From a virus: DNA of 41,802 bases. The stretch's first letter is position 1. Each line of letters opens with the position of its first letter. Under the pieces are notes generated by a model. It saw only the letters and a program-made list of their open reading frames with translations, did no database searches and was not told the DNA's origin. The position numbers and the translations under genes are program-made. The stretch lies in IMG/VR virus record IMGVR_UViG_3300045988_137960; one strand, 5' to 3'. This document shows, piece after piece, positions 1-41,802 of this stretch.

Positions 1-119
1 GGAGCTTTGTCAACATCTTTTTGGGTAAAATTACTCTCGATAGGGAGTAAGGAGTTGCCATGATTCTTTTGAAGGGTCTTCCAGACATCCTCGCCTCTCG
101 AGGAATGAAGCCAGCAGAC
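1..119. repeat. Terminal direct repeat, left copy (identical to 41684-41802)
   Basis: ggagctttgtcaacatc...gaagccagcagac occurs at both window ends. Base 120 has no counterpart after 41802. Confidence 0.95.
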
Positions 120-329
120 AGCGGACTTGATCTTGTCCTTAGGCATGGACTGAGCCTTGGCCTTGGCAACGGCAGCGGCGAGGCTGGCGTTGTTCTCAGG
201 CAGCGGGTCGCCGCCGAGACGGGCAGCAACGGTGATGTTGCGGCTCAGCTTGGAGAAGAGGGCGGAACGCTTGGCGTCCTGCGCGCCCTTACGATGCTTG
301 GTTGTGGCCCACTTAGAGTGTCCGGACAT
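1..329 (-). pseudogene. yebC: 5' fragment of a yebC/pmpR-family gene (codons 1-71) fused in frame to unrelated sequence. The ORF wraps through the end overlap and stops at 41662-41664 (116 codons in the circular form).
   Basis: ATG at 327-329 with AGGAGA 5 nt upstream. The translation [71 protein letters not shown] is the conserved YebC N-terminus. Similarity stops at codon 71 (bases 117-119) and is followed by [13 protein letters not shown]... Confidence 0.75.
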
Positions 330-645
330 ACGTGTCTCCTATCGGTTTCGACCTAAAGCCCAGCGCAGATGCTCGGGCAATATAAACAAACGTTGGTATG
401 TTATCGCATCTTTTTACCGAGACCAAACTCTATACATAAGAAACAGGCTCTCCTGTAAAAATGTCGGAAGCAATCGTAAAATTGCACAACAACGCCGCAC
501 CCGAAAGTCAAATGCGGCGTCTACATCAATACCTAGATTACCACTTATGGCTTTTTAAGCAAATACAAGACGCACAACAGGCATTATTCATTTTACAAGG
601 TTCACAAGGCGCTACAAGATGCACCGTAGGGACCAAATAGGGACC

Positions 646-684
646 AAAAGCAGAGTCTCCAGCAAACTTGGAGTCTCTGCTTTT
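646..684. terminator. Bidirectional factor-independent terminator candidate
   Basis: 12-bp stem (650-661 with 669-680, one T:T mismatch) and a 7-nt loop, flanked by aaaa (646-649) and tttt (681-684). Confidence 0.6.
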
Positions 685-703
685 ATTCGACCGCATCGGC
701 AAC

Positions 704-737
704 AAAAAAGCCCTCCCCGGCATGATGCCGAGGAGGG
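704..737 (-). terminator. Factor-independent terminator of the lysis/late operon
   Basis: 13-nt arms at 711-723 and 725-737 with one mismatch. The A-run 704-709 gives a U-run on the minus transcript. It lies 12 nt after the stop of ORF 749-1051. Confidence 0.7.
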
Positions 738-748
738 TGATGTGCCTG

Positions 749-1051
749 CTATGGCCTGTCGATGACGACCTGGTCACCGTCCTCGTCGAGGTACGGCGTG
801 ATGGCGATGCCGCGGTCGCTCTCGACCACGATATAGGCTCGATTCGTCGAGCGCTCGGTGGCGATGTACGAGTTCACGCTCTGCGGCAGGTCGTAGAGCG
901 GTCCGTCGGACTGATCAATGACCGTGGCGACGCCCGTAGCGCTCGCATCGCTTGGATGCGCAAGCGAGCAGGCGACGGTGATGAGCGCGAACATAGCGAT
1001 GACCGCCAGGACCGCGTAGACGAAGCCTAACAGCTTCTCGCTGAGTTTCAT
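749..1051 (-). CDS. Small membrane-anchored or lipoprotein-like protein downstream of the endolysin
   Basis: 100 aa. The N-terminal hydrophobic segment LLGFVYAVLAVIAMFALITVAC ends in Cys (imperfect lipobox). The stop is followed by its own terminator. Confidence 0.5.
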   Translation of the reverse strand: MKLSEKLLGFVYAVLAVIAMFALITVACSLAHPSDASATGVATVIDQSDGPLYDLPQSVNSYIATERSTNRAYIVVESDRGIAITPYLDEDGDQVVIDRP

Positions 1052-1052
1052 G

Positions 1053-1898
1053 CTACTCCTTGATGAGGTAGTCGTCTGCCTCGGGCTTGCCGGTGGCGCG
1101 CCCGACGGCGACGTAACGGATATTTCCGCTGTAACCGGTGTATCGGCCCCAGATATAGCCGTCGGCAGACTTGTACCAGTCGTCGAGAACGACGGTCTGG
1201 CCGAGGCCGTAGGAGGCCACGATGGAGCCGGAAAGCGACGGGGCGGTGCGCACGTTCAGCTTGGACACGGTGCAGCGGTAGCGGCCGCCGAAGTTCTCGG
1301 TCTTAGCAGATGCCTCCACATGGGCCTGAGATGCGCCCTGGGATGCCTTTCCAGGCTCTGCGGCACCGTTGACCATAGAGTCGTACCAGGCCTGCGCACG
1401 GGCGATATAGGCGTCCTTCTGGCTTCCGTAAAGCTCGCCCGGGCAGGCCGTTGCGCTCCAGTGCCTATGCGGCCAGACGTTCTTGCCCCACTCCGGCCTG
1501 CCGAGCTTGTAATACACGCAGATGGCGGCCGTGAGGTGCGCACCGGTGTCAAGGGTGTCCTCGGAAACGGTCCACGGGTCGGCGCAGTCGTTCGCGTGCT
1601 CGATGCTGATGGTGCGGTCGTTGCCACCGCCGGTGCCGATGCCGTCGCCGCACGCCCACGCGCGGTTGAAATCGTCGACGAACTGGGCAATGCGGCTGCC
1701 GGCCACTCCGTAGTGAGCGCCGGTGCCGTTGGAGTCGAGAGCTGCCTTGCACTGCTCGAGCGTGAGCTTGCCCGCCATGTGGTGCACGGTCACGCCGGAG
1801 ATGCCGAACGGGCGGCCCTTGGTGAAACCTGCCGCGACGCGCATGTAAACGTCGGGCTGGAGGTTCTTCCAGTCCATGCTACTCGCCGTTCCCGTCAT
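1053..1898 (-). CDS. Endolysin: N-acetylmuramoyl-L-alanine amidase (Amidase_2/PGRP type) with a C-terminal SH3-like wall-binding domain
   Basis: GVTVHHMAG...ISIEHAN...HRHWSATACPG is amidase-like, and the C-terminus YRCTVSKLNVRTAPSLSGSIVASYGLGQTV...GYIWGRY is SH3b-like. An alternative start (MDWKNL, 1877) sits 2 nt after the holin stop. Confidence 0.9.
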   Translation of the reverse strand: MTGTASSMDWKNLQPDVYMRVAAGFTKGRPFGISGVTVHHMAGKLTLEQCKAALDSNGTGAHYGVAGSRIAQFVDDFNRAWACGDGIGTGGGNDRTISIEHANDCADPWTVSEDTLDTGAHLTAAICVYYKLGRPEWGKNVWPHRHWSATACPGELYGSQKDAYIARAQAWYDSMVNGAAEPGKASQGASQAHVEASAKTENFGGRYRCTVSKLNVRTAPSLSGSIVASYGLGQTVVLDDWYKSADGYIWGRYTGYSGNIRYVAVGRATGKPEADDYLIKE

Positions 1899-2438: not shown

Positions 2439-2589
2439 ATCCAATCACCCCCTCGTTCTCGGGGAGGTCGACGTCGCACATGCACGCGAGGTACGTGATG
2501 TTGGCGTCGTACGTGTCGAGCGCGGCGACGATGTTCTCCTCCCTGCGGCTACCCTCGATGTCTCCATTGGTTCGCTTGATTACGACCAT
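2413..2589 (-). CDS. Hypothetical small protein (58 aa)
   Basis: Hand-read ORF MVVIKRTNGDIEGSRREENIVAALDTYDANITYLACMCDVDLPENEGVIGYEHAGIED. It overlaps both the RT stop and the XkdX-like start. Confidence 0.4.
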   Translation of the reverse strand: MVVIKRTNGDIEGSRREENIVAALDTYDANITYLACMCDVDLPENEGVIGYEHAGIED

Positions 2590-3604
2590 CGGTATCTCCC
2601 TTCCAGAGGTCCCTGTAGTAGCGCCTCATGCGCCGTATCAACTTGAACGAGTCGCCCTTCTTGACGTGGGCGACCCAGCCCTCGAAGCTCGCGTCGGCGT
2701 CCTCCTTTGAGATGACGCCGCGCTTCGCGAGCCTGACGACGCCCTTGAGGTGCCGCCTCTCCTGCTTGACCTTCGCAGACAGGACGTTCATGAAGACGCG
2801 CCCGGTCGGCGACAGCTTGAAGTGGAAGCCGAGGAAATCTATGCCGCGAGATAGCGGCCTTATGTGGGTCTTCTTCCTGTTGAGAGCGAAGCCGAGCTTG
2901 GCGTACTCATCTGTCAGGACGTCGAGCGCCCGCTCAAGCTCCTCGCGGCTGTCGCTTATGAGGATGGAGTCGTCCATGTACCTTATGTAGTGGCGGACCC
3001 TGAGCCGCTCCTTGACCATGTGGTCTATCGGGCTTAGGACCGACACTCCGGCTATCTGCACGAGCTGCGAGCCGGGGTTGACCCCGACGTCGCCCGTGTA
3101 CTGGTTCTCGAGAATCGAGGCCACGATGCCGACGTACCTCGCATCGAGATGGCGCTCGAATGGTGCGAGCGCCGTCGCGTGCGGCATGTTCGGGTAGTAG
3201 CCGGCCACATCGAGCGTCAGCACCCACCCGTCTTCACCGTGCTTCGCGTAGTGCTCGCGCATGAACCGCTTGAGCCTGTTCCGCGCGAAGTCCGTGCCCT
3301 TGCCGGTCTGGCACGATGCGTTGTCGTATATCCAGTCCCGGCTCATTGCCGGGTAGAGGACGAAGTCGTTGAGCGACCTCTGGAAGACCCTGTCCCTGAA
3401 CGTGATTGCGACGATGTCGCGCTGCTTGGGGTAGTAGATGGGGAAGCGTCTCACCGGACGCTGGACGTATGTGCCGTCCGCAAGCTCGTCTGCGAGTCTC
3501 GCCACCTCGGTCGGCGCGTTGAGCACGAAGCTCGCCACGCTGCCCTTCCACATCACTCCCCTGCGGCATCGCTCCATTGCCTCCCAGAGGCACTCGAACG
3601 ACAT
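2549..3604 (-). CDS. DGR reverse transcriptase
   Basis: 351 aa from MSFECLWEAMERCRRGVMWKGSV. It carries RT motifs including VGVNPGSQLVQ (DGR-type N..SQ) and RYMDDSILI. The 465-aa ORF-track version extends upstream across the TR and is not credible as coding. Confidence 0.9.
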   Translation of the reverse strand: MSFECLWEAMERCRRGVMWKGSVASFVLNAPTEVARLADELADGTYVQRPVRRFPIYYPKQRDIVAITFRDRVFQRSLNDFVLYPAMSRDWIYDNASCQTGKGTDFARNRLKRFMREHYAKHGEDGWVLTLDVAGYYPNMPHATALAPFERHLDARYVGIVASILENQYTGDVGVNPGSQLVQIAGVSVLSPIDHMVKERLRVRHYIRYMDDSILISDSREELERALDVLTDEYAKLGFALNRKKTHIRPLSRGIDFLGFHFKLSPTGRVFMNVLSAKVKQERRHLKGVVRLAKRGVISKEDADASFEGWVAHVKKGDSFKLIRRMRRYYRDLWKGDTDGRNQANQWRHRG

Positions 3605-3757
3605 GGGGTCGACGGCGCTTGCAGGCCCAGCACATCCATCGGAGGTGGGGTCGTCGCCGCCGCGGTGTTCGGCCCTCTCGGGCACTGGACCGGGACTCCT
3701 TGCGCCGGGGTCTGCGGCGGACGGCGCTATGCGTCGCCTCTCCATGCCGCCGTGCCC

Positions 3758-3886
3758 GTTGCAATCGGGGGCCGCGCGATTGCCGTTGTACGCGTTGTTG
3801 TTGTTCACGTTGCCATCGGCGTTCACGATGAACGGGTTGTACGCGTTGTCGCGGTTCGCGGACCGCATCCAGGAGTTCTGGGCAGT
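3758..3886 (-). repeat. DGR template repeat (TR), 129 nt
   Basis: The coding-strand reading TAQNSWMRSANRDNAYNPFIVNADGNVNNNNAYNGNRAAPDCN is rich in AAC codons. It is near-identical to 4386-4517 except at adenines. Confidence 0.85.
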
Positions 3887-3908
3887 ATCAGCCCCGGTCC
3901 AAGAATCT

Positions 3909-4319
3909 CTAATGCCCGGCACGGAAGCGTCGGGCATCTGATTCACTCCATGCGGAGGTCATCGACCTCACGGAACTCACGAGTCCGGACCAATGGTGGA
4001 CCCGCCTGCCGCGGAGGTGGAACGTCTTCTTCGCGACGCCGATGAGGAAGATCAGCTCGTTGCACTTGACCTTGGCCTTGCGCTGGAGGCTCCTCCTCTC
4101 GGCGAGGTCGTCATCGTCGACGACCTTGATGTTGTTCGCGCTCCAGAGGTACTGGCCGATTGCCACGCTGGCGTCCACGATGCGGGCCGTCAGCATGGCG
4201 AACTCGGGCCTGAAGGTCCTCTCGTTGGACGTAATCTCGACCGTGTAGGAGCAAAGCTCATTTGCCTTCGCGAACACTTCCATCCTGCTCTTACCGCGCC
4301 TGCTGGCGGGTACGGTCAT
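3909..4319 (-). CDS. avd: Avd-like accessory variability determinant (four-helix-bundle protein)
   Basis: 136 aa, basic and helical, lying between the target gene and the TR. AAGGAGG sits 7 nt upstream of the ATG at 4317-4319. Confidence 0.8.
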   Translation of the reverse strand: MTVPASRRGKSRMEVFAKANELCSYTVEITSNERTFRPEFAMLTARIVDASVAIGQYLWSANNIKVVDDDDLAERRSLQRKAKVKCNELIFLIGVAKKTFHLRGRRVHHWSGLVSSVRSMTSAWSESDARRFRAGH

Positions 4320-4343
4320 GAATGGCCTCCTTTGGTTGTAGGG

Positions 4344-4367
4344 GCCGGGGCGAGGTGTCGCCCCGGC
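4344..4367 (-). promoter_or_regulatory. Perfect hairpin just downstream of VR (DGR target-recognition hairpin and/or terminator)
   Basis: gccggggcga/tcgccccggc forms a 10-bp stem with a 4-nt loop, 10 nt after the target-gene stop (4377-4379). Confidence 0.6.
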
Positions 4368-4376
4368 GATTGACGA

Positions 4377-5624
4377 TTAGCAGATGGCGCAAGCGGGGGC
4401 CGCGCGATAGCCGCCGTTGCACGCGTAGCTGCTGTTCACGGTGCCACCGGCGCTCACGAGGAACGGGTAGCACGCGCCGGCGCGGTTCGCGGACCGCATC
4501 CAGGAGTTCTGGGCAGTCGTCTTGGCGTTGAGCGCGTACTGGATGTACGCAGGCTCCTTCTGCCACAGCGGGGCCTTGGACGTGCCGCCGCGGGCGAGCT
4601 TCCAGTACTCCCACGGGTCGCCCTCGACGCCGTTGACGGAGGACTCGTTGCAGTTGATCCAGTGCTGCTCGAGGCTCGGCAGGAAGAACTTGTCGAAGGT
4701 CTTGGAGAGCGCCGGCGCATCCGAGGTGCCGCCGTAGGTGATGTAGTTGCGGGCGGTCACGACCTCAATCTCGCCGACTGCCGCGACGAAGTCGTCGGGC
4801 AGCATCGACATGAAGCCGGCCTTGGAATCGTACGGTCCGTAGCACACGGACGCGGACGGGATGTGGTCGTAGTCGTGCTTGGGCTTGAACCAGTTGGCGT
4901 CGCGGCTGTTGAGCCACTGGCGGAGGTTCGAGTGCTCCCAGTCGCCGTTGCCGTAGGCGGCGCACTGGATGGACCAGAGGTCGCCGCTCTTGGGCTTGTC
5001 GAGCGTGCCGAGGCTCGTGCCGGCGCTGCCCTCGGCCACGGCGAGCGTCGCCTTCGGGGTGGCCGCGGAGGCGCTGTCGAACACGTAGACCTTCCAGTCG
5101 GTCACCTTTGTGTCCCAGGCCCCGTAGAAGCCGAGGAGCTGGTTGCCCTTGACGAGCGGGTCGGAGAGGGTGAACTGATAGGTCTTCCCCTTGACCATCG
5201 TGCCCTGGCTGTATCCGAGCGTCACGTTGTAGATGCCGGCGGGAAGGCCGGACTCACCGGCCACGTAGAACGCCTCTCGGGCGTCGAAGCTCGTGGCGAA
5301 TGGCAGCGTGTAGTGCTGCTGGAGGAACATGGCCGGGACGACGTCGCCGACCTTGTTGCGCACGTTGCCGAAGCCCGTGACGTCCCACGGGTCGTCGTAC
5401 ACGTTGGAGCCGTCGGTCAGCTTGACGACGAGCTGGTCGCCAACGGAGAAGGCCTTGTCTGCCTGACCGGACTGGGCGATGTGCTTCACCTCGTCCCAGC
5501 TGACCTCGGTCGAGACGGCGTTGTTGCGCACCATCTGCGCGAGAAGGCCGTTCTGCACGTTGAGCGATGCGAGGATCGCGTTGCCCGTGGTGTCGAGAAC
5601 GAGCCTGTTGTCTGCGTCTGCCAT
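4377..5624 (-). CDS. DGR target protein: receptor-binding/tail-fibre protein with a C-terminal variable (C-type-lectin-like) region
   Basis: 415 aa from MADADNRLVLDTTG (ATG 5622-5624, AAAGGAG upstream). The C-terminus ...TTAQNSWMRSANRAGACYPFLVSAGGTVNSSYACNGGYRAAPACAIC is the VR. The gene sits at the end of the tail module. Confidence 0.85.
   Translation of the reverse strand: MADADNRLVLDTTGNAILASLNVQNGLLAQMVRNNAVSTEVSWDEVKHIAQSGQADKAFSVGDQLVVKLTDGSNVYDDPWDVTGFGNVRNKVGDVVPAMFLQQHYTLPFATSFDAREAFYVAGESGLPAGIYNVTLGYSQGTMVKGKTYQFTLSDPLVKGNQLLGFYGAWDTKVTDWKVYVFDSASAATPKATLAVAEGSAGTSLGTLDKPKSGDLWSIQCAAYGNGDWEHSNLRQWLNSRDANWFKPKHDYDHIPSASVCYGPYDSKAGFMSMLPDDFVAAVGEIEVVTARNYITYGGTSDAPALSKTFDKFFLPSLEQHWINCNESSVNGVEGDPWEYWKLARGGTSKAPLWQKEPAYIQYALNAKTTAQNSWMRSANRAGACYPFLVSAGGTVNSSYACNGGYRAAPACAIC
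4386..4517 (-). repeat. DGR variable repeat (VR), 132 nt
   Basis: Hand alignment to the TR gives 17 substitutions, all at TR coding-strand A positions, plus one extra GGC codon (4410-4415). Confidence 0.85.
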
Positions 5625-5628
5625 TGGA

Positions 5629-6090
5629 CTACTCCTTTGCTTTCTGACAGATAAAGCCCTCGGCATCCAGGTAGATTCCGAGGGGGAACAATGCAGCCAG
5701 CTTGGCGGCGGTTTCGTCGCACGCTTCCTTAGAGGCGTTGGCGTCCTCTGCCGCTTTGGCCGCCTTTGTGGTCGCGGCCACAGTCGCGGCTTTTGCCTTG
5801 TTCGCGTTATCGGTCGCTGTCTTTGCATTGCCGGTCGCCTCGTCCGCGAGCTGCTTCGCCCGCTTGGCGTCGCTCGTGGCCGTCTCGCAGGCGCTCACCG
5901 CGGCGGTAGCGCTTGCGTTTGCGGCGTTCGCGCCGCTTGCAGCCGTGTTGGCTAGATCTGCGGCTTTATTCGCAGCGTCGGCGGCCTCCATCGAGATCGT
6001 CGACTCGATGCGGTAGATGGTTCCGTCGGTCGTCTTGATGCGGTCGACGTTGCCGTTCTCGTTCGTGAGGAACTGGGCCATCTCAGCCAT
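5629..6090 (-). CDS. Ala-rich coiled-coil fibre-associated protein
   Basis: 153 aa with a long A/T/N/K-rich helical middle. It lies immediately upstream of the DGR target. AAAGGAG RBS. Confidence 0.5.
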   Translation of the reverse strand: MAEMAQFLTNENGNVDRIKTTDGTIYRIESTISMEAADAANKAADLANTAASGANAANASATAAVSACETATSDAKRAKQLADEATGNAKTATDNANKAKAATVAATTKAAKAAEDANASKEACDETAAKLAALFPLGIYLDAEGFICQKAKE

Positions 6091-23760: not shown

Positions 23761-25428
23761 ATGAACGAGTATAGCACCATCAACAAGACAGCCGAGGCGG
23801 CCGGGCCGCTGGCTGACCTCGAGGCCGTGGAGCGCGTGAGGAATGGCATAGTTAAGGCCGCTACGCAACACTGGCGCTGCCATATCATGGAGCGCTCAAA
23901 CCTCGACCAGGCGCTGCGCTATGCCGAGCTTAACGACCAGCTGCGCAATATGAGCGGCTATATTGTTGCTTGCCCGGTGTGCGGCCGCCCGGTTAGGTAC
24001 GACCACCTTGCAGAGGACGCCTACGGCGACGACATGTGCCCGGACTGCTTAATAGCCGCCGGTTACGTCAAATGCGACCACTGCGGAGAGTGGATCGACG
24101 AGGACGAGACGACCGAGGTTGACGGCGAAACGTGGTGCTCAGCGTGCGTAGATAGCGACGCCGAGCCGTGCGATCACTGCGGCGAATACCACAACAACTC
24201 GGATAACCTGGAGACTGTGCACGTCTGGATCAGCTATCGTTGTGACACGATTGACGAGGCATGGTGTGAGAGCTGTCGAGATGATAGCGCGTATACCTGC
24301 GACAGCTGCGGGGAGTTTTACGCCGGTTTCGGAGACTGCTACGGCGAAACCCTAGTACACGGCCGCGACGGCGAGGAAAACTACAGGCACCTGTGCCCGT
24401 CGTGCGAGGATCAGCTGCCCCACTGCTACGGCTGCGGGAGCGCACTTGAAACCGACTGCTACCGGGACGCCTACGGCGACGCTTACTGCTGCGACTGCAA
24501 GCCGGAAAGCAAATACCTACAGGGCTACGACCACACCTACGCAAGCAACTACTACCGCGCAAAGGACGACCCGACGCCCGCCGGCCTGTATCTGGGCGTC
24601 GAGCTTGAAACCGAGGCATACCGAACCGAGAACCCGGAAGCGCTGGCCAGGGACGTTATCATGGCCGTTGGAGACGAGCGCGTCGTGTGCAAGGAGGACG
24701 GAAGCCTAACGGACGGCTGCGAGATCGTAACGCAGCCCATGAGCGCGGCCTACCATCTGGCACCGCTCGACGACCTTGGCGGCCGCCGGCTCTGGGACGT
24801 GATCCTAGACACGTGCGCCGAGCATAACGCCCGCTCGCATAACGGCGTTTTACGTGACTACCAGGCGGCCGTAAAGCCCGGCGTTAGCGATACAGTTGCA
24901 TACGTTCGCGACGTTGCCCTATACCTCGCCAATGATGCCGAGGTACGCCGGTGCGGCGGCCTGGCAGTGTCGCGCCTGGCGGCCGACATGCTGCGCGACT
25001 CGTCGCAGGGCTCACGCCTGGCGATCATGGACGGCCACGGCAACGTACGCCTAACCGGTGCCGGCTGGGAGGACGTGCAACCGGGTATCCATGCGAGTAA
25101 CGACAGCTGGCGGCCGTTCGAACCGGTATACCGCTGCGGATCGTATGCGTACGGCTGGGATAGCCCGGACCGCTGGCCGGACTGGGAAGACCTCGACGGC
25201 CTGGAGCAGCCTATGCTGTGGGACGATTGGCCCACGGCGGCGGCCGTCCGGTATGCCGACGAGACGTACACAGTTAGCGACGTTTTCGAGGAGTACTACA
25301 CCTGGAACAACTACCGCGAGTTCTGCGAGGAGTATACCGAGTGCCGGTACCACTGCGCACGCTGCGGATCATTGCCGTACTGCGCGACGGACGACGACCT
25401 TAAACGCCTGGGCGGCCGTCGTGGCTAG
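23761..25428 (+). CDS. Multi-zinc-ribbon protein with an amidoligase-like (Amidoligase_2 / GS-like COOH-NH2 ligase) core signature
   Basis: 555 aa with an AAAGGAG RBS. It has five tandem CxxC(G)...CxxC units (CPVCG..CPDC, CDHCG..CSAC, CDHCG..CESC, CDSCG..CPSC, CYGCG..CCDC). These are followed by GLYLGVELETE and KEDGSLTDGCEIVTQP. It is the only long plus-strand gene that is not antisense to a better ORF. The coding call is firm; the function is tentative. Confidence 0.7.
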   Translation: MNEYSTINKTAEAAGPLADLEAVERVRNGIVKAATQHWRCHIMERSNLDQALRYAELNDQLRNMSGYIVACPVCGRPVRYDHLAEDAYGDDMCPDCLIAAGYVKCDHCGEWIDEDETTEVDGETWCSACVDSDAEPCDHCGEYHNNSDNLETVHVWISYRCDTIDEAWCESCRDDSAYTCDSCGEFYAGFGDCYGETLVHGRDGEENYRHLCPSCEDQLPHCYGCGSALETDCYRDAYGDAYCCDCKPESKYLQGYDHTYASNYYRAKDDPTPAGLYLGVELETEAYRTENPEALARDVIMAVGDERVVCKEDGSLTDGCEIVTQPMSAAYHLAPLDDLGGRRLWDVILDTCAEHNARSHNGVLRDYQAAVKPGVSDTVAYVRDVALYLANDAEVRRCGGLAVSRLAADMLRDSSQGSRLAIMDGHGNVRLTGAGWEDVQPGIHASNDSWRPFEPVYRCGSYAYGWDSPDRWPDWEDLDGLEQPMLWDDWPTAAAVRYADETYTVSDVFEEYYTWNNYREFCEEYTECRYHCARCGSLPYCATDDDLKRLGGRRG

Positions 25429-25579
25429 CCTGGCCGTAGCCGTGCGCCGGTGGCTGGATCAGCCGGCGCACGTGAGCCGGCGGGCCGTGGCCGCGCTGGC
25501 CGTGGCTGTCGTCGTCCTGGCCGTGGCCGTCGTCGTGCAGACGATCAGGCTAGACAATATAATCTGCTATTACTACTAA
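25421..25579 (+). CDS. Possible 52-aa transmembrane peptide (GTG start overlapping the upstream stop)
   Basis: VASLAVAVRRWLDQPAHVSRRAVAALAVAVVVLAVAVVVQTIRLDNIICYYY. The RBS is weak. A 9-bp GC hairpin at 25582-25604 follows. Confidence 0.3.
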   Translation: MASLAVAVRRWLDQPAHVSRRAVAALAVAVVVLAVAVVVQTIRLDNIICYYY

Positions 25580-25625
25580 CCGGCGGCCGCCTGGAGCGGC
25601 CGCCATCGTTTGGAGCTGATGCCAA

Positions 25626-25757
25626 ATGACCGTCGAGTTCTGGGACGCGCTAATACGGCTGCTGTTTCATCCCTGGATATTCCCGTTTACTCTAATCCTG
25701 ATTCTATCGTTTATCGCAATAATCATTGCAATACTCAATATCCTGCTGGGCGGCTAG
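25626..25757 (+). CDS. 43-aa very hydrophobic peptide
   Basis: MTVEFWDALIRLLFHPWIFPFTLILILSFIAIIIAILNILLGG. The local DNA is visibly AT-richer. GGAG lies 10 nt upstream, and the ORF ends 28 nt before a terminator. Confidence 0.5.
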   Translation: MTVEFWDALIRLLFHPWIFPFTLILILSFIAIIIAILNILLGG

Positions 25758-25784
25758 CTCTACCCCATATCAATAAAACGGCGA

Positions 25785-25820
25785 AACGCCCGACACCTCA
25801 ACCGGTGCCGGGCGTTTTTT
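25785..25820 (+). terminator. Factor-independent terminator closing the plus-strand island
   Basis: 13-nt arms at 25785-25797 and 25804-25816 with one mismatch, a 6-nt loop, then tttttt. Confidence 0.7.
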
Positions 25821-26198
25821 ATTGCCGCTCCAGTGCTACCGGATCAGCCCGCGCGGCCGTCGTCCTGGGCGCTCCAGGCGGCCGCGCGTCGTCCTGGAGA
25901 TCGTAGGACAATCCAGGCGGCCACCCGGCCACGCCTCGCACACAAACGCAGGCGCTCGACGGCTTCCGGCCGCTGGGACGATATAGGCCCACGGCCACGG
26001 CCGTATATAGCCGTCTGGGCCGCTCTAATGCCTATTTTAGGGCTGTTTTTGGGCCGGCGCGACCGAGTACAGCCACGGCACGACAGCGGGCCGTGTAGGC
26101 CTATCTGGTGGCCCCTGGTGGCGTTTTCGCAGGTCAAAAGCCATGCCGGCGGTTTTATGCACGCCGAAAAAGTGGATATAATACGCGCAAGGCCACCC

Positions 26199-26237
26199 AA
26201 AAAGCGCGTGCGGCCTGCGGAAACGCGCAGTGCACGC
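26199..26237 (-). terminator. Candidate terminator of the early/replication operon
   Basis: Nested GC stems (26204-26209 with 26223-26228; 26206-26211 with 26232-26237). They are followed on the minus strand by a U-run (plus-strand aaaaa 26199-26203). Confidence 0.4.
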
Positions 26238-26258
26238 CGCGCCGCGCAGCGGAAAGCG

Positions 26259-26501
26259 TCAGCGCTCGGGCGGCTCGTCCGCGCCCTCCTCGTCGGCGGC
26301 GGCATCGGCGCGGTCCGCCATCGCCGCCTGCGCCGCTATCGCGGCCATCGCCGATGTCCCGACGGCCTGCGCCGCCTCGGCCACCTCGAGGAAGTTCGCG
26401 CCCAGCTCGACCGCCGAGTCCGCGAACGCGGAGATGAGCGCGTGGACCTTCTCGCGGTCGTAGATGCCGCGTCCCAGCTCGGCCTCCTGCTCGGGCGTCA
26501 T
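26259..26501 (-). CDS. Hypothetical acidic Ala-rich protein (80 aa)
   Basis: MTPEQEAELGRGIYDREKVHALISAF... ATGA overlaps the upstream HTH gene. Confidence 0.5.
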   Translation of the reverse strand: MTPEQEAELGRGIYDREKVHALISAFADSAVELGANFLEVAEAAQAVGTSAMAAIAAQAAMADRADAAADEEGADEPPER

Positions 26502-26758
26502 CCGGCCACCTCCTCGATGCCGCAGCGCATGGCCCGCGCGATGGCGCACCACGTCGCGAAGTTGCCGGCGCTCGCCCCGCTCCTCAGCGCGGTGATGGTC
26601 CTCGTGGAGATTCCCGTCCTCTCGGACAGCTCGGCGACGGTGGTTCCCGTCTCCCTCATCCTCGCCTTCAGCTTGGCCCCGGAGCTGGGGTCCTTCACCG
26701 GCGAGAGCGGTGTGGTGCAGGCCATGGCCCTCCTTCTTCTGTCAATGTGCTGCGGCAT
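26498..26758 (-). CDS. XRE-type HTH DNA-binding protein
   Basis: KLKARMRETGTTVAELSERTGISTRTITALRSG is a helix-turn-helix. The start is either 26758 or MACTT at 26725. Confidence 0.65.
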   Translation of the reverse strand: MPQHIDRRRRAMACTTPLSPVKDPSSGAKLKARMRETGTTVAELSERTGISTRTITALRSGASAGNFATWCAIARAMRCGIEEVAG

Positions 26759-26893: not shown

Positions 26894-26912
26894 CGACTCG
26901 GGCGCAGCGCGC

Positions 26913-27030
26913 GATTTTGATTTCGATTTTCAAATTGTGATTTTGATTTCGATTTCGATTTCGATTTCATTTTCCGATTTTGATTTCCGATTTCGATTTC
27001 GATTTCGGTTCCGGGGGCCGATTTCGGTTC
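26913..27030. repeat. Hexamer/dodecamer tandem array (GATTTC)n and (GATTTTGATTTC)n
   Basis: About 8 gatttc units and 3 gattttgatttc units, plus two gatttcggttccgg units, in a non-coding gap next to the replication genes. Confidence 0.9.
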
Positions 27031-27048: not shown

Positions 27049-27732
27049 TCACCACCCGAACGACTTGTCCATCTCGGCGTACACGTCGCGGGTCATGCGG
27101 TGCCTGCCCGTGTCGACCTTGAGCGGGCGGCACATGCCGAGGATGCGGTTGTACGTGCGCCTGTCGGCCACGTCGCCCTCTCCCGCCAGCTGCTCCCTCG
27201 TGAGGTTGCTCGTGACGATGGTCGGACGGTGCAGCTGGTAGCGCATGTCGACGATGCTGTAGACCGTCTCCTTGCCGAAGCTGCTGGTGCGCTCGGCCCC
27301 GAGGTCGTCGAGGACCAGCAGCTCCGCGTCGGTGAGCAGGCGGACGGCCGTCGGCACCTCGTCGTACCTGCGGCTCAACACCCACGGCATCGAGCGGCAC
27401 ACGACGCGCATCCCGCGGTCGAGCGCCTCGTTGGCGATGCAGCAGGCGAGGAACGTCTTGCCGCTGTCGGGCGGACCGAACAGGAGCAGCCCGCTCCTCT
27501 GGGCCGGCAGCGTGGCGGCGTACCTGCGGCACTTGTCGACGAGGTCGCCGCCGTACTTCCCGTCGTCGTGGGCGAAGTCCATCAGGCGCATCTCCGGGGC
27601 GACGAACGCCGTCTCGGCGCGGGCCTCCAGCGAGGCGCACCGGCATTTCACCGGGACCTTCACCGGACGGGTCCCGTCGTAGACGACGCGCTCGACGGGG
27701 TGGCCGCACTTGGGGCACATCTCGACGTCCAC
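27049..27732 (-). CDS. DnaC/IstB-like AAA+ helicase loader with an N-terminal zinc ribbon
   Basis: CPKCG...CRC; Walker A is GPPDSGKT and Walker B is LLVLDDLG. Confidence 0.85.
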   Translation of the reverse strand: MDVEMCPKCGHPVERVVYDGTRPVKVPVKCRCASLEARAETAFVAPEMRLMDFAHDDGKYGGDLVDKCRRYAATLPAQRSGLLLFGPPDSGKTFLACCIANEALDRGMRVVCRSMPWVLSRRYDEVPTAVRLLTDAELLVLDDLGAERTSSFGKETVYSIVDMRYQLHRPTIVTSNLTREQLAGEGDVADRRTYNRILGMCRPLKVDTGRHRMTRDVYAEMDKSFGW

Positions 27733-36487: not shown

Positions 36488-37393
36488 CTAATCCTTCTTT
36501 TTCTCCGCGTACTTGATGTAGCCGCCGCTCGGCTTGCCGTTGCGCATGAAGCGCGTCCACGTGAACTTGCCGTCGGGCGTGACCAGCCCCCGGTCGTCCC
36601 CGATGAGCTGGCACAGCCCGTTTGTGGCGGCCTGGTATCCCTTCTCGGCGTCGTCTCGCACCTTCTTGGCGTCGAGCCACGCAGTCGCCTCGCTTGGCGT
36701 CTCGTTCAGCTCGATAAGCTCGCCGGGTTGCAGGTGCTTCGATGCCAGGGCCTTGAGTTCCGCGCCGATCTCGCCGATTGGCGGCTCGGTGCCGCCCTCG
36801 ACCATCGCCCAGAAGTCGTCGACGGCCCTGTCGACCGCCTTGACGTCGTCCTCGTCGCGCATGACTCGGAACTCCCTGTACTTCTGCCCGCCGATGAGCA
36901 CCGCGACGTCGGCGAACTTTCGCCCGGTCACGCTCATGTAGTGGGTCACCTGAGTCAGGTAGTACAGCGGCACGCCCTCATCCCAGTCGTGCTCCCTGTA
37001 TAGCGACGCCGTCTTTATCTCTAAGATTCCCCATCCGAGTTCGGGGTCCCTGACCTCGTAATCAAGAGAGGCCTGGGCATGAGGGCGTCCGATGCTCCTG
37101 CACACAGCGTTGACTCGTCTGACAGTGCGTCCTGGGTGTAGAGCGGCATAATGGCTGCCGACCACAGGCTCGAGGATATTGCCCCATTGAACCGCCTCGA
37201 CCGTGCTGAGGTCGGCCGGCTGCACGTACCCGAGCTTCTCGGCCCATACCTCGTAAGGCCCTCGATATTGAGACAGCCCCATGATGGCCGCGACGTCAGA
37301 GCCTCCGATTCCGCGGCGGCGCTGCTCGAGCCATTCGTCGCTCCCATCGCACCTGATGAGGTCGAAGACACGCCCCTCTCCTACGACAGGCAC
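36488..37393 (-). CDS. YqaJ/lambda-Exo-type recombination exonuclease
   Basis: SDEWLEQRRRGIGGSDVAAIMGLSQYRGPYEVWAEKLG is the YqaJ N-terminal signature. Confidence 0.85.
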   Translation of the reverse strand: MPVVGEGRVFDLIRCDGSDEWLEQRRRGIGGSDVAAIMGLSQYRGPYEVWAEKLGYVQPADLSTVEAVQWGNILEPVVGSHYAALHPGRTVRRVNAVCRSIGRPHAQASLDYEVRDPELGWGILEIKTASLYREHDWDEGVPLYYLTQVTHYMSVTGRKFADVAVLIGGQKYREFRVMRDEDDVKAVDRAVDDFWAMVEGGTEPPIGEIGAELKALASKHLQPGELIELNETPSEATAWLDAKKVRDDAEKGYQAATNGLCQLIGDDRGLVTPDGKFTWTRFMRNGKPSGGYIKYAEKKKD

Positions 37394-37764
37394 TACTCGT
37401 CCCCGTTGAGAACGTCCTTGGCCATCTCGAGGACGACCTTCTTCTCCTTGGCGATGGCGTCGTCTTCGTCACGCTCCCCGATTACCCCGCGGTGCGCCTT
37501 GGAGACGCAGCCGTAGGCCTCGGCGACGGAACCCTCGTTGAGCACGCCACTCGTGAGGACGGCCTCGCACGCAGCGATGACGGAGAAGAGGTCGATTGCC
37601 ACGCAGAGGTCGACGCCCCTCATATCATCTTTGGTTCCGCCGATGGCAAAGGCGAGCGAGCGGAGGGAGTCCTTGCTCGTGGTGACGACGACCTCGAGCG
37701 CGTCGGCGCTGTCCTCGATGTGGTCCGTCAGGCAGTTATCGCTGAAGTAATGGTTGGTGTTCAT
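37393..37764 (-). CDS. Hypothetical acidic protein (123 aa)
   Basis: In operon context, with ATGA overlap to the upstream gene. Confidence 0.5.
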   Translation of the reverse strand: MNTNHYFSDNCLTDHIEDSADALEVVVTTSKDSLRSLAFAIGGTKDDMRGVDLCVAIDLFSVIAACEAVLTSGVLNEGSVAEAYGCVSKAHRGVIGERDEDDAIAKEKKVVLEMAKDVLNGDE

Positions 37765-40030: not shown

Positions 40031-40116
40031 TGGCAGGCGCGGAGGGACTCGAACCCCCATCGGCGTTACCGCCACAGTTTTGGAGACTGCTGCTCTACCG
40101 GTTGAGCTACGCGCCT
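40031..40116 (-). tRNA. tRNA-Trp: tRNA-Trp(CCA), 86 nt including CCA, with an unusual long variable arm
   Basis: AGGCGCG-TA-GCTC-AACCGGTA-GAGC-A-GCAGT-CTCCAAA-ACTGT-[GGCGGTAACGCCGAT]-GGGGG-TTCGAGT-CCCTC-CGCGCCT-G-CCA. A1:U72 and G73 match bacterial tRNA-Trp. Confidence 0.8.
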
Positions 40117-40117
40117 G

Positions 40118-40191
40118 TGGAGTGCTGCCCAGGAGTCGCACCTGGTTTCACGGAGTTGCAGTCCGCCGCCTAGCTGTTCGGCCAGCAGCAC
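40118..40191 (-). tRNA. tRNA-Cys: tRNA-Cys(GCA)
   Basis: Acceptor GTGCTGC/GCAGCAC, discriminator U, anticodon loop CTGCAAC. The T-loop is TGCGACT (non-consensus position 55). Confidence 0.8.
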
Positions 40192-40192
40192 A

Positions 40193-40269
40193 TGGAGTCG
40201 CCAGAGGGAATCGAACCCCCAACACGCGGTTTAGGAAACCGCCGCTCTATCCCATTGAGCTATGACGAC
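40193..40269 (-). tRNA. tRNA-Arg: tRNA-Arg(CCT)
   Basis: Acceptor GTCGTCA/TGGCGAC, anticodon loop TTCCTAA, T-loop TTCGATT. Confidence 0.85.
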
Positions 40270-40274
40270 GAAAA

Positions 40275-40360
40275 TGGTGCCGCATCTAGGTAATGCTCCC
40301 AGCCAGCCAATAGGCACCTGATTTACAGTCAGGCCCCCGTCTTTAGGGGAATACTGCGGC
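40275..40360 (-). tRNA. tRNA-Tyr: tRNA-Tyr(GTA)-like type II tRNA with non-canonical D and T loops
   Basis: Acceptor GCCGCAG/ATGCGGC (7:66 mismatch), A73-CCA. Anticodon arm CCTGA-CTGTAAA-TCAGG, variable arm GCC-TATT-GGC. The T-loop is AGCATTA, and the D-loop TAAAGAC has no GG. Confidence 0.6.
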
Positions 40361-40364
40361 AGTG

Positions 40365-40455
40365 TGGAGGAGGGTGTGGGAGTCGAACCCACGGATCGCT
40401 ATCAACGACCGGCTGTTTTCTAGACAGCTGCAATAAGCCTCTCTGCCAACCCTCC
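40365..40455 (-). tRNA. tRNA-Ser: Type II tRNA with anticodon AGA (formally tRNA-Ser)
   Basis: Acceptor GGAGGGT/ACCCTCC, discriminator U. Anticodon arm GCTGT-CTAGAAA-ACAGC, 19-nt variable arm, T-loop TTCGACT. Confidence 0.7.
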
Positions 40456-40457
40456 GT

Positions 40458-40546
40458 TGGCGGAGCATGTAGGACTTGCACCTACGGGCCTCGTATGAGG
40501 TCTACGGGTTAGCAACCCGCTGCGGTAGCTACTGCGCCAATGCTCC
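40458..40546 (-). tRNA. tRNA-Ser: tRNA-Ser(GCT)
   Basis: Acceptor GGAGCAT/ATGCTCC, G73. Anticodon loop TTGCTAA, 18-nt variable arm, T-loop TGCAAGT. Confidence 0.8.
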
Positions 40547-40550
40547 GAAA

Positions 40551-40625
40551 TGGTTGTCGCGGTAGGTGCTGACCCTACGACCTCCCCGTTATCAACAGGG
40601 TGCTCTACCGTTGAGCTACGCGACA
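40551..40625 (-). tRNA. tRNA-Ile: tRNA-Ile(GAT)
   Basis: Acceptor TGTCGCG/CGCGACA, A73. Anticodon loop TTGATAA, T-loop GTCAGCA. Confidence 0.8.
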
Positions 40626-40626
40626 G

Positions 40627-40700
40627 TGGAGCCGCCTGCGGGAATCGAACCCGCATAACCGATTTGGAAGACCGGTGTTCTACCTTTGAACCAAGGCGGC
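40627..40700 (-). tRNA. tRNA-Gly: tRNA-Gly(TCC)
   Basis: Acceptor GCCGCCT/AGGCGGC, U73. Anticodon loop CTTCCAA, T-loop TTCGATT. Confidence 0.9.
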
Positions 40701-40701
40701 G

Positions 40702-40777
40702 TGGCTTGCGCGGCAGGCCTCGAACCTGCGACCTCCCGGTTAACGGCCGGGTGCTCTACCAACTGAGCTACACGCAA
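40702..40777 (-). tRNA. tRNA-Asn: tRNA-Asn(GTT)
   Basis: Acceptor TTGCGTG/CGCGCAA, G73. The anticodon loop CCGTTAA has C rather than U at position 33. T-loop TTCGAGG. Confidence 0.8.
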
Positions 40778-40778
40778 A

Positions 40779-40826
40779 TGGTGGGGCAAACAATACGGAG
40801 GCAATACATCTCCGCTGGGTTGCCCC
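40779..40826 (-). ncRNA. 48-nt tRNA-like minihelix (acceptor stem plus one hairpin plus ACCA) embedded in the tRNA array
   Basis: GGGGCAA-CCCAG-CGGAG-ATGTATTGC-CTCCG-TATTGT-TTGCCCC-A-CCA has a 7-bp acceptor stem, a single 5-bp stem with a 9-nt loop, and no D or T arms. Confidence 0.5.
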
Positions 40827-40830
40827 GTGT

Positions 40831-40905
40831 TGGTCGCGGGAGCGGGAATCGAACCCGCATGGCCCGGCTTATGAGGCCGGTGAGTTACCTGTACTCTATC
40901 CCGCG
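40831..40905 (-). tRNA. tRNA-Met: tRNA-Met(CAT) (elongator or Ile2-type; C1:G72)
   Basis: Acceptor CGCGGGA/TCCCGCG, A73. Anticodon loop CTCATAA, T-loop TTCGATT. Confidence 0.85.
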
Positions 40906-40906
40906 A

Positions 40907-40983
40907 TGGCTTCTCGGCAGGGAGTCGAACCCTGACCGGCTGAATCAGAATCAACCGTGCTAGAACCGTTACACCACCGAGAA
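40907..40983 (-). tRNA. tRNA-Gln: tRNA-Gln(CTG)
   Basis: Acceptor TTCTCGG/CCGAGAA, G73. Anticodon loop TTCTGAT, T-loop TTCGACT. Confidence 0.85.
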
Positions 40984-41266
40984 CGTTTCGGCCAGCGGCC
41001 CCGGCGACCGATACGCTGCTGTACACATCTTCTTACGACGCGGCAGCCAAGTGGCAGGGCTGCCTTGGTTTTCCGATGTCGTATCGGCCGTTGCGGCCGC
41101 TGGTCTGGAGGCGCTGCAATCGCCCGCCCCCGTGTTGCCGTGGTTTCCGCGCGTCGCGGCTTTGGCACTCACGGCTTGCCGCCCTCCCGGCGCGATGCCG
41201 TTCGGGCCTTACCCCTTCCGGGGCGCATATTCTGTACTCAAGGTGCGCGTCCATTCGGACGGGCGT

Positions 41267-41396
41267 GCGGTTTCCCGCGCGGACTCGACTGATGTAGGGA
41301 AGGCCTGCCCAGGAGTCGGAGGCAGGTGAAAATTGCCCGTGAAGGAAGTGGTCAGTCTTCAGAGAGGAGTTCAGTCGAGTCCGCGAGGGAAACCGC
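41267..41396. repeat. 26-bp inverted repeat (41267-41292 and 41371-41396, one mismatch) enclosing 78 nt
   Basis: gcggtttcccgcgcggactcgactga ... tcagtcgagtccgcgagggaaaccgc. It begins 6 nt after the Cro-like gene stop. Confidence 0.85.
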
Positions 41397-41637: not shown

Positions 41638-41691
41638 TTGCTCCACGTTGGGAGCTTTCGATTACCGATATTGCTCCACGTTGGGAGCTTT
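41638..41691. promoter_or_regulatory. Two 21-bp direct operator-like repeats (41638-41658 and 41671-41691), each with an internal GCTCC-N6-GGAGC dyad
   Basis: ttgctccacgttgggagcttt occurs twice, 33 bp apart, overlapping the early promoter spacer and the initial transcribed region. Confidence 0.7.
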
Positions 41692-41696
41692 GTCAA
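41668..41696 (-). promoter_or_regulatory. Early promoter candidate
   Basis: On the minus strand: TTGACA (41696-41691), a 17-nt spacer, then CAATAT (41673-41668), about 57 nt upstream of the Cro-like ATG. Confidence 0.55.
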
Positions 41697-41802
41697 CATC
41701 TTTTTGGGTAAAATTACTCTCGATAGGGAGTAAGGAGTTGCCATGATTCTTTTGAAGGGTCTTCCAGACATCCTCGCCTCTCGAGGAATGAAGCCAGCAG
41801 AC
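41684..41802. repeat. Terminal direct repeat, right copy (identical to 1-119)
   Basis: Exact 119-nt identity with the window start. Confidence 0.95.
41743..41802 (+). pseudogene. Possible remnant (first ~20 codons) of a divergently transcribed XRE/CI-type repressor gene. It is also present as 60-119.
   Basis: AAGGAG-N6-ATG, then [20 protein letters not shown]. Beyond base 119 the frame is antisense to the yebC fragment and reads as G/L/A-rich filler. Confidence 0.35.

Follow-up and report, generated by a model that had tools for sequence, protein, structure and literature searches.

The stretch of DNA analyzed here, which we refer to as the window, is a viral contig of 41,802 nucleotides whose first 119 bases (1-119) are an exact copy of its last (41684-41802). 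This terminal repeat is not biological. It is the circular overlap made by the assembler (MEGAHIT, k=119), a reading that rests on the exact 119-bp repeat and on the name of the contig, k119_2611 (ENA ERZ27261338:k119_2611). Thus, the genome is a circle of 41,683 bp. Nearly all of its genes are found on the minus strand. In the direction of transcription, they begin with a gene for a Cro-like HTH protein (41611-41402) and ten tRNA genes. These are followed by the early genes (a RusA-like resolvase, YqaJ, RecT, SSB, an mIHF-like H2TH protein, dUTPase, and a DnaC/IstB-like ATPase), the head genes (terminase, portal, protease, and capsid), the tail genes, a DGR reverse transcriptase, a holin and an amidase, and finally a 100-aa gene (1051-749, minus) directly upstream of the terminator of the lysis module. 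A Pfam search with the ORFs of the window showed that the lytic functions are kept, namely terminase, portal, capsid, tail, holin, amidase, and the genes of replication and recombination; RecT, YqaJ, and RusA are its proteins of homologous recombination. The parental type is a temperate siphophage of the gut genus Collinsella, from which the window derives. A blastn search of GenBank phages with positions 1-1100 gave no match. The temperate-type features listed in a preliminary description of this DNA are all present: the cro-like gene, its operators, an Xis-like HTH protein (38553-38266), the mIHF-like protein, and a DGR.

The early operator region (41640-41688), as read from the sequence, lies between cro and the remnant of a repressor gene. 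It contains the palindromic GCTCCACGTTGGGAGC twice, at 41640-41655 and at 41673-41688, and the second copy extends into the terminal overlap (41684-41688 being identical to 1-5). The operators are kept in all relatives, and the alignment reveals single-base variation at a central position. There, the window has T in both copies (in the minus-strand alignment, CAACGTGG; on the plus strand, the C of CGTTGG in GCTCCACGTTGGGAGC). Five aligned relatives that carry an integrase have G in both copies (L004, L006, and L014) or in one copy (L007 and L008), and T in the cro-distal copy is found in the window alone among those aligned. The overlap itself (1-119) is phage DNA, in which the end of one operator is followed by a ribosome-binding site and the remnant of the repressor gene, and its inner end is a junction that we call J1 (119|120). 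The remnant (60-119, plus strand, with AAGGAG upstream) holds the first 20 codons of the gene for repressor 1; a tblastn search of the window with the 109-aa repressor of relative L008 returned 20/20 identity at this place. The frame is cut at J1 and continues into antisense yebC. The complete gene, with a match to HTH_26/HTH_3, is present in L004, L006, L007, L008, and L014.

The DNA on the other side of J1 is of host origin. A minus-strand ORF of 116 aa starts at the ATG at 329-327 and runs from 329 to 1 and then, across the circular join, from 41683 to 41662. Its residues 5-71 match the Pfam family TACO1_YebC_N (PF20772, E 4e-27), and its residues 1-70 are identical to those of Collinsella YebC (70/70); from residue 71 on, it is unrelated. 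This host DNA, which we term fragment A, is thus divisible into a coding part (120-329, minus; yebC codons 1-70) and a leader (330-395, minus), the latter being the region upstream of yebC, with its ribosome-binding site. The leader starts at the core of the phage attachment site (AACG at about 392-395) and constitutes the B' arm of attB, the two being described below. The preliminary description had correctly recognized a conserved yebC/pmpR-type N-terminus with this start codon and had placed its fusion to unrelated sequence at base ~119. Its count of 71 yebC codons was one too many, as 70 host codons are kept, and the fusion point can be sharpened to exactly 119|120, where the relatives diverge. 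At J1, host ...AAGTCCGCT is joined bluntly to phage GTCTGCTGGCTTC..., with no shared base. Fragment A has 97-98% DNA identity (blastn) to two Collinsella contigs, L002 and L003, which represent available sequences and not the actual host strain. Further, the leader is 100% identical to the host end of the attR junction in a provirus (L145), as far as L145 extends. We infer that the 116-aa YebC' fusion has no function; most simply, both it and a 98-aa ORF formed by the repressor remnant and antisense yebC are by-products. A more doubtful possibility is that the fusion of the 70-residue N-domain interferes with host YebC. Short database proteins that consist only of a YebC N-terminus were considered as possible prophage junctions and rejected, as these sequences are frameshifted or truncated calls of ordinary Collinsella yebC.

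Between the yebC leader and the lysis genes, the base composition of the window changes. The GC content of positions 330-703 is 44.7%, against 62.2% for the genome, and this is the sole stretch in which 374-bp windows fall below 50%. The preliminary description had noted some 400 bp of AT-richer DNA; the compositional claim is sound, but not all of this DNA was acquired, as 536-748 is conserved phage DNA. DNA from three different sources makes up the AT-rich stretch: the host yebC leader, fragment B (a second piece of host DNA), and an arm of the phage attP. This P arm (536-703) is 89-95% identical to the P arms of L008 (attP) and L145 (attR). Read on the minus strand from 703 to 536, it is complete as far as ...GGTAATCTA, which takes in two bases of the core. 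It harbors the tandem 11-bp repeat that had been reported at ~627-648 (TAGGGACCAAA, at 627-637 and 638-648) and a hairpin (646-684, with 16-nt arms), the earlier description having given this stretch a bidirectional terminator of its own. The 11-mer TTTGGTCCCTA occurs twice in the P arm and a third time in the P' arm beside int (in L008). This layout is as expected for the arm-type binding sites of an integrase, and the copies are likely to be such sites, although this assignment is putative. The lysis-module terminator noted earlier is also real: it occupies 704-748 on the minus strand (a stem at 737-711, then a run of T), downstream of the 749-1051 gene, and is conserved in L008.

The 140 bp of fragment B (396-535) are inserted within the att core and resemble neither the sequence of the phage relatives nor that of the yebC locus. 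The source of the fragment is an unlinked intergenic region of Collinsella, seen in L067, which follows the stop codon of a sensor histidine kinase gene and precedes a capsule-type operon (Wzz, tyrosine kinase, and phosphatase), and the fragment contains the hairpin native to that region (494-521). A 25-mer from the fragment matched at least 120 Collinsella genome contigs. The full segment 396-535 has 99-100% identity in at least 120 loci, and none among the matches listed adjoins yebC. The idea that 405-533 could be a diverged yebC upstream region of the true host was rejected in light of the same 99-100% identity to an unlinked locus in at least 120 genomes. The core in the window thus reads TA, then fragment B, then C-AACG, with the loss of 3 nt relative to attR; on the minus strand, the sequence after fragment B is C-AACG-TTTGTTTATATTGCC..., in which three bases of ACGACG are missing. 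The junctions share 0-2 bases, and at the boundary between fragments B and A there are 1-2 bases of no assignable origin. In total, the window holds about 416 bp of host DNA (120 to ~533-535), of which the part from the yebC locus (120 to ~395-404) makes up ~276-285 bp, i.e. the yebC leader and 70 codons. As an observation on the native locus of fragment B (L067 4730-4869), its 140 bp are 99-100% identical across at least 120 species-level Collinsella genomes, and the yebC region is 97-98% identical between strains. Such conservation is unusually strong for non-coding DNA, and the locus may be a regulatory element. Rfam gave no match for fragment B and nothing above chance in window 1-900.

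What the window lacks at this position is evident from its relatives. Searching IMG/VR with the Cro-like protein retrieved five close ones (L004-L008). L005 ends at the start of cro and is uninformative on the region upstream. The other four (L004, L006, L007, and L008) are 94-97% identical to the window in the early region and 100% identical over positions 1-119, and they diverge from it exactly at 119|120. Beyond this point, 4/4 carry a module of 1.9 kb that encodes the 109-aa HTH repressor, a second 109-aa HTH protein (repressor 2), and a 371-aa tyrosine integrase, all transcribed divergently from cro. The integrase matches PF14659 above threshold and phrog_1 at an E of 1e-31; its cluster at 90% protein identity (P0121) has 344 member sequences. 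L008 represents the excised phage with attP, and its similarity to the window starts again at window position 534 and extends across the lysis genes. Window 120-533/535 therefore stands in place of 1,893 bp of the L008 lysogeny module (L008 5917-7809). Missing with this block are int, the adjacent P' arm, the whole of repressor 2, and all of repressor 1 past its codon 20. Pfam scans of the ~62 ORFs of the window detected no tyrosine or serine recombinase, integrase, transposase, or ParA/partition protein, and a search of its six-frame translation with a profile built from 30 integrase homologs, together with tblastn, gave a best E of about 1. These results bear out the earlier statements that the genome has no recognizable recombinase, transposase, or partition gene and that neither an integrase nor a repressor lies between the terminator and the operator.

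All four forms of the attachment site of this phage family could be recovered from public sequences, and they share the 7-bp core TAACGAC. The attP form (L008) is GGTAATC-TAACGAC-TGATATTT, and attB (L002 and L003) is GGTATATCA-TAACGAC-GTTTGTTTATATT. The corresponding hybrids are attL (L014 and L004), GGTATATCA-TAACGAC-TGATATTT, and attR (L145), GGTAATC-TAACGAC-GTTTGTTTATATT. The core is intergenic, 63-69 bp upstream of the yebC start codon (in L002, the core is at 5932-5938 and the ATG at 6001). In attL it is flanked by the perfect inverted repeat ATATCA/TGATAT. L014, a Logan contig whose integrase is 98% identical, runs past int into a Collinsella DUF6020 gene (92% identity to L002), which sits just upstream of yebC. 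A single IMG/VR provirus contig supplied both L004, its left end, which starts in the host DUF6020 gene, and L145, its right end, in which the P arm passes straight into the yebC leader (100% identical to L002 5932-5986), leaving yebC intact. The family therefore integrates upstream of yebC and not within it, and in a lysogen the gene is placed just beyond the lysis (attR) end of the prophage. A search of the literature found nothing on an attB of a Collinsella prophage or on the run accession. A related prophage whose integrase is 78% identical (L012 8001-9480) is inserted elsewhere, on a 93-kb Collinsella contig beside two identical tandem tRNA-Glu(CTC) genes and the gene for a CCA-adding enzyme; the family has thus switched attachment sites.

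The arrangement of the window can be compared directly with that of the provirus. Read from 395 to 120, the window contains the B' arm and yebC codons 1-70 in native orientation on the P-arm side, just as they follow attR in L145. The presence of the attR flank in its native orientation, coupled with the loss of the opposite prophage end, is the signature of aberrant excision of the Campbell type. Thus, we conclude that the window is likely a deletion-substitution derivative of a temperate Collinsella siphophage that arose by faulty excision of the kind that produces lambda bio. This is the second of the two readings offered in the preliminary description, which had pictured a lambda-bio-like derivative with host DNA picked up next to the lysis end and the int-repressor end lost. 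Its two main elements are upheld: the relatives hold int and two repressors where the window holds host DNA, and attB is immediately upstream of yebC, on the lysis/attR side. Each of the three outcomes that had been named as contrary to the earlier proposals was looked for with a negative result: no divergent integrase came to light, the host match is close, and the relatives have no yebC-like ORF at this position.

The junctions, the att forms, the missing module, and the sources of both host fragments are read directly from the DNA; the order of events and their enzymology, by comparison, can only be reconstructed. The integrase of the parental type inserts at TAACGAC, 63-69 bp upstream of yebC, giving a prophage with the order DUF6020 gene, attL, int, repressor 2, repressor 1, cro, early genes, structural genes, lysis genes, P arm, attR, and yebC. 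Excision in the ancestor of the window would then have missed both attL and attR, joining codon 20 of repressor 1 to codon 70 of yebC at J1. Of the prophage, the resulting circle would keep the part that begins at cro and runs past the lysis genes and the P arm to the attR junction, together with 276 bp of adjoining host DNA. Lost from it would be int, the P' arm, repressor 2, and the whole of repressor 1 apart from its first 20 codons. The entry of fragment B into the core would require a second event or a more complex single event. The window has no intact hybrid att (P-core-B'), as the core is split by fragment B with the loss of 3 nt. The window is thus a modified, not a textbook, product of aberrant excision.

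How fragment B came to lie in the core is a separate question. No simple crossover explains its junction with fragment A. Its left end (TA|GGTAT) is next to TGATGT, which resembles the core-flanking TGATAT. An exchange made by the integrase at a secondary site would be compatible with this end; the right end does not have the form of a clean crossover. With 0-2 shared bases, 1-2 unassigned ones, and 3 nt lost, the junctions also fit end-joining after a break at the core, possibly one left by abortive integrase cleavage, with a stray piece of the chromosome taken up during repair. Fragment B may have come by either route, end-joining repair or secondary-site exchange.

An account in which the host DNA has nothing to do with integration at yebC must also be weighed: a replicating, non-integrated phage could have taken up random pieces of host DNA by illegitimate or RecT-mediated recombination. 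It draws on the unlinked origin of fragment B, on the mere 0-2 nt shared at all junctions, and on the RecT, YqaJ, and RusA that the phage encodes. However, the start of fragment A is no more than a few bases from the core, which makes a random acquisition unreasonable; the fragment comes from the attR side and lies in native orientation on the P-arm side, a placement very unlikely for a random piece of a ~2-Mb genome. We regard this account as decidedly unlikely. Still less probable is the other reading of the preliminary description, that the phage integrates inside yebC through an unrecognized recombinase and that the 5' end of the gene is a replacement end belonging to attP. Some temperate phages do carry in attP a replacement end of their target gene (the 3' end of a tRNA gene or the end of a protein gene), and the window resembles them: it has a host gene end that comes with its own leader, ribosome-binding site, and start codon, and this end occupies the place, flanked by lysis genes and lysogeny module, that is usual for attP. 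In this family, however, the target is intergenic, with the attB core 63-69 bp from yebC; the integrase-carrying relatives have no yebC sequence in attP (L008; L004/L006/L007); in the provirus attR, the P arm is followed at once by the leader of an intact yebC; and the gene fragment comes with the loss of the integrase, no recombinase having been found in the window. The window is not a phage of the replacement-gene-end type, and we consider the chance that this reading is correct to be negligible.

Two further alternatives concern the physical nature of the contig. Were it a MEGAHIT chimera of host and phage reads, neither yebC nor fragment B would be linked to the phage. The coincidence of J1 with the contig end, where the 119-bp overlap stops precisely, and the probable co-occurrence of the host and related phages in the sample lend this notion some plausibility, but J1 contains no shared sequence that could mislead a k=119 graph. 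Further, a different assembler (Logan, k=31) reproduced the junctions in two runs, ERR1137030 and ERR1137309, with three junctions in each. The copy in ERR1137030 is 100% identical to the window over 7.7 kb, and that in ERR1137309 (L150) differs by one SNP near 2157 and an in-frame 27-nt insertion near 37650 (gene 37393-37764). A chimera is thereby rendered very improbable. The recurrence with variants argues for a propagating lineage, not an artefact, and for divergence within that integrase-less lineage. The variant was found in one ENA project only (two runs); exact matches to its junctions were absent both from IMG/VR, searched for J1, P/B, and B/A, and from JGI metagenome contigs, searched for J1 and B/A. 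The remaining alternative is a rearranged chromosomal prophage, either a tandem duplication reaching from the prophage to yebC or a defective resident, with J1 closing a cycle in the graph. A contig that ends exactly at J1 is best explained by a branch in the graph, and the junction of a tandem duplication would likewise assemble as a circle. From the same branch, it would follow that a wild-type repressor gene and/or an intact yebC exists in the same sample. Weighing against a chromosomal structure, the 41,683-bp unit is a complete phage genome with all lytic functions, the same structure occurs with slight divergence in two runs, and fragment B in the core is specific to this copy; moreover, the loop-out of such a duplication would yield the same circle anyway. 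We judge it improbable, though less so than the other alternatives. Faulty excision is the reading that we retain, with the element probably existing as a free, packaged phage; the circular contig and the recurrence in two runs are compatible with packaging.

Lambda bio and lambda gal, the specialized transducing phages that arise by aberrant excision as modeled by Campbell, are the natural points of comparison. As in their case, the parent of the window inserts site-specifically, and the derivative has taken along host DNA from beside one end of the prophage. This DNA keeps its native order and orientation and is attached through a hybrid att region; the new joint is an illegitimate one, made without homology. 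Lambda bio loses int and xis, and the window similarly lacks phage sequence from the opposite end of the prophage, namely int, both repressors, and the P' arm. Unlike these phages, the window has a flank of only 276-285 bp, containing a gene fragment and transducing nothing useful. It has also lost its repressor and has a second, unlinked host fragment of 140 bp within the core, and it is known here from gut metagenome assemblies alone. Another precedent is mycobacteriophage D29, a lytic deletion derivative of a temperate phage when compared to L5. The window shares with D29 a temperate-type character (cro, operators, the Xis-like HTH, and integrase-carrying relatives) and the loss of the repressor region, but in its case host DNA has taken the place of the deleted region, and the deletion is linked to the att site. 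Its origin from an integrated state is thus legible in the sequence.

Having neither integrase nor repressor nor an intact att site, the phage would be unable to lysogenize a host on its own. It is expected to be a lytic derivative that forms clear plaques, and the repressor made by wild-type lysogens should still act on it. This repression could be evaded by transcription that starts at the captured yebC leader and crosses the operators into cro, and no terminator separates the leader from cro. These facts raise the possibility, which we consider doubtful, that the captured yebC promoter (and possibly also the capsule-operon promoter of fragment B) drives cro and the early operon independently of repressor. 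This would confer a natural “vir” phenotype, i.e. growth on the phage's own wild-type lysogens. A sigma-70 pattern scan of window 1-1100 revealed no promoter, and our statements regarding promoters are accordingly conditional. If true, promoter capture could explain the persistence of the variant, in slightly diverged form, in two samples in which wild-type relatives seem to be present as well.

Faulty excision of temperate phages and their lytic deletion derivatives are textbook phenomena, and it is this instance, not a mechanism, that is new. The novelty resides in the Collinsella phage family, its attachment site and likely arm sites, and a variant resolved to the base with an extra host fragment in its core. 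The window provides a natural example of the passage of a temperate phage to an integrase-less, repressor-less form that picks up host DNA on the way, with all att forms available from public data. It also defines TAACGAC, upstream of yebC, as the attachment site of a common family of Collinsella prophages. The lack of an integrase in a circular viral contig can reflect recent loss instead of lytic ancestry, a point that bears on the prediction of lifestyle in viromes. Finally, the host-gene fragment, which might otherwise be mistaken for an auxiliary gene or contamination, is explained.

Several other features of the genome deserve mention. The array of ten tRNA genes just downstream of cro (40031-40983) specifies Trp, Cys, Arg, Ser x2, Ile, Gly, Asn, Met, and Gln; it is kept in L008, L012, and L014, with the order of Gly and Ile swapped in some. 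Next to it, at 40984-41351, are ~370 bp of GC-rich DNA without a convincing gene. The sole clear plus-strand gene (23761-25428) is located between the HNH/terminase genes and an apparently non-coding stretch of ~0.8 kb (25429-26258). Its 555-aa product, in which CxxC pairs crowd the N-terminal half, matched nothing in Pfam and is only weakly similar to phrog_16683 (unknown function). A gap of 290 bp separates an HTH gene (26498-26758) from the DnaC/IstB-like gene (27049-27732), and within it is an imperfect (CGATTT)n array of ~15 copies (26912-27024), which could be a set of iterons or a replication origin. The DGR module (2549-5828) comprises the reverse transcriptase (2549-3946) and a DUF6273-type target protein (4377-5828). 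It contains a pair of 122-bp repeats that are 85% identical (~3761-3886 and ~4389-4510), likely the template and variable regions.
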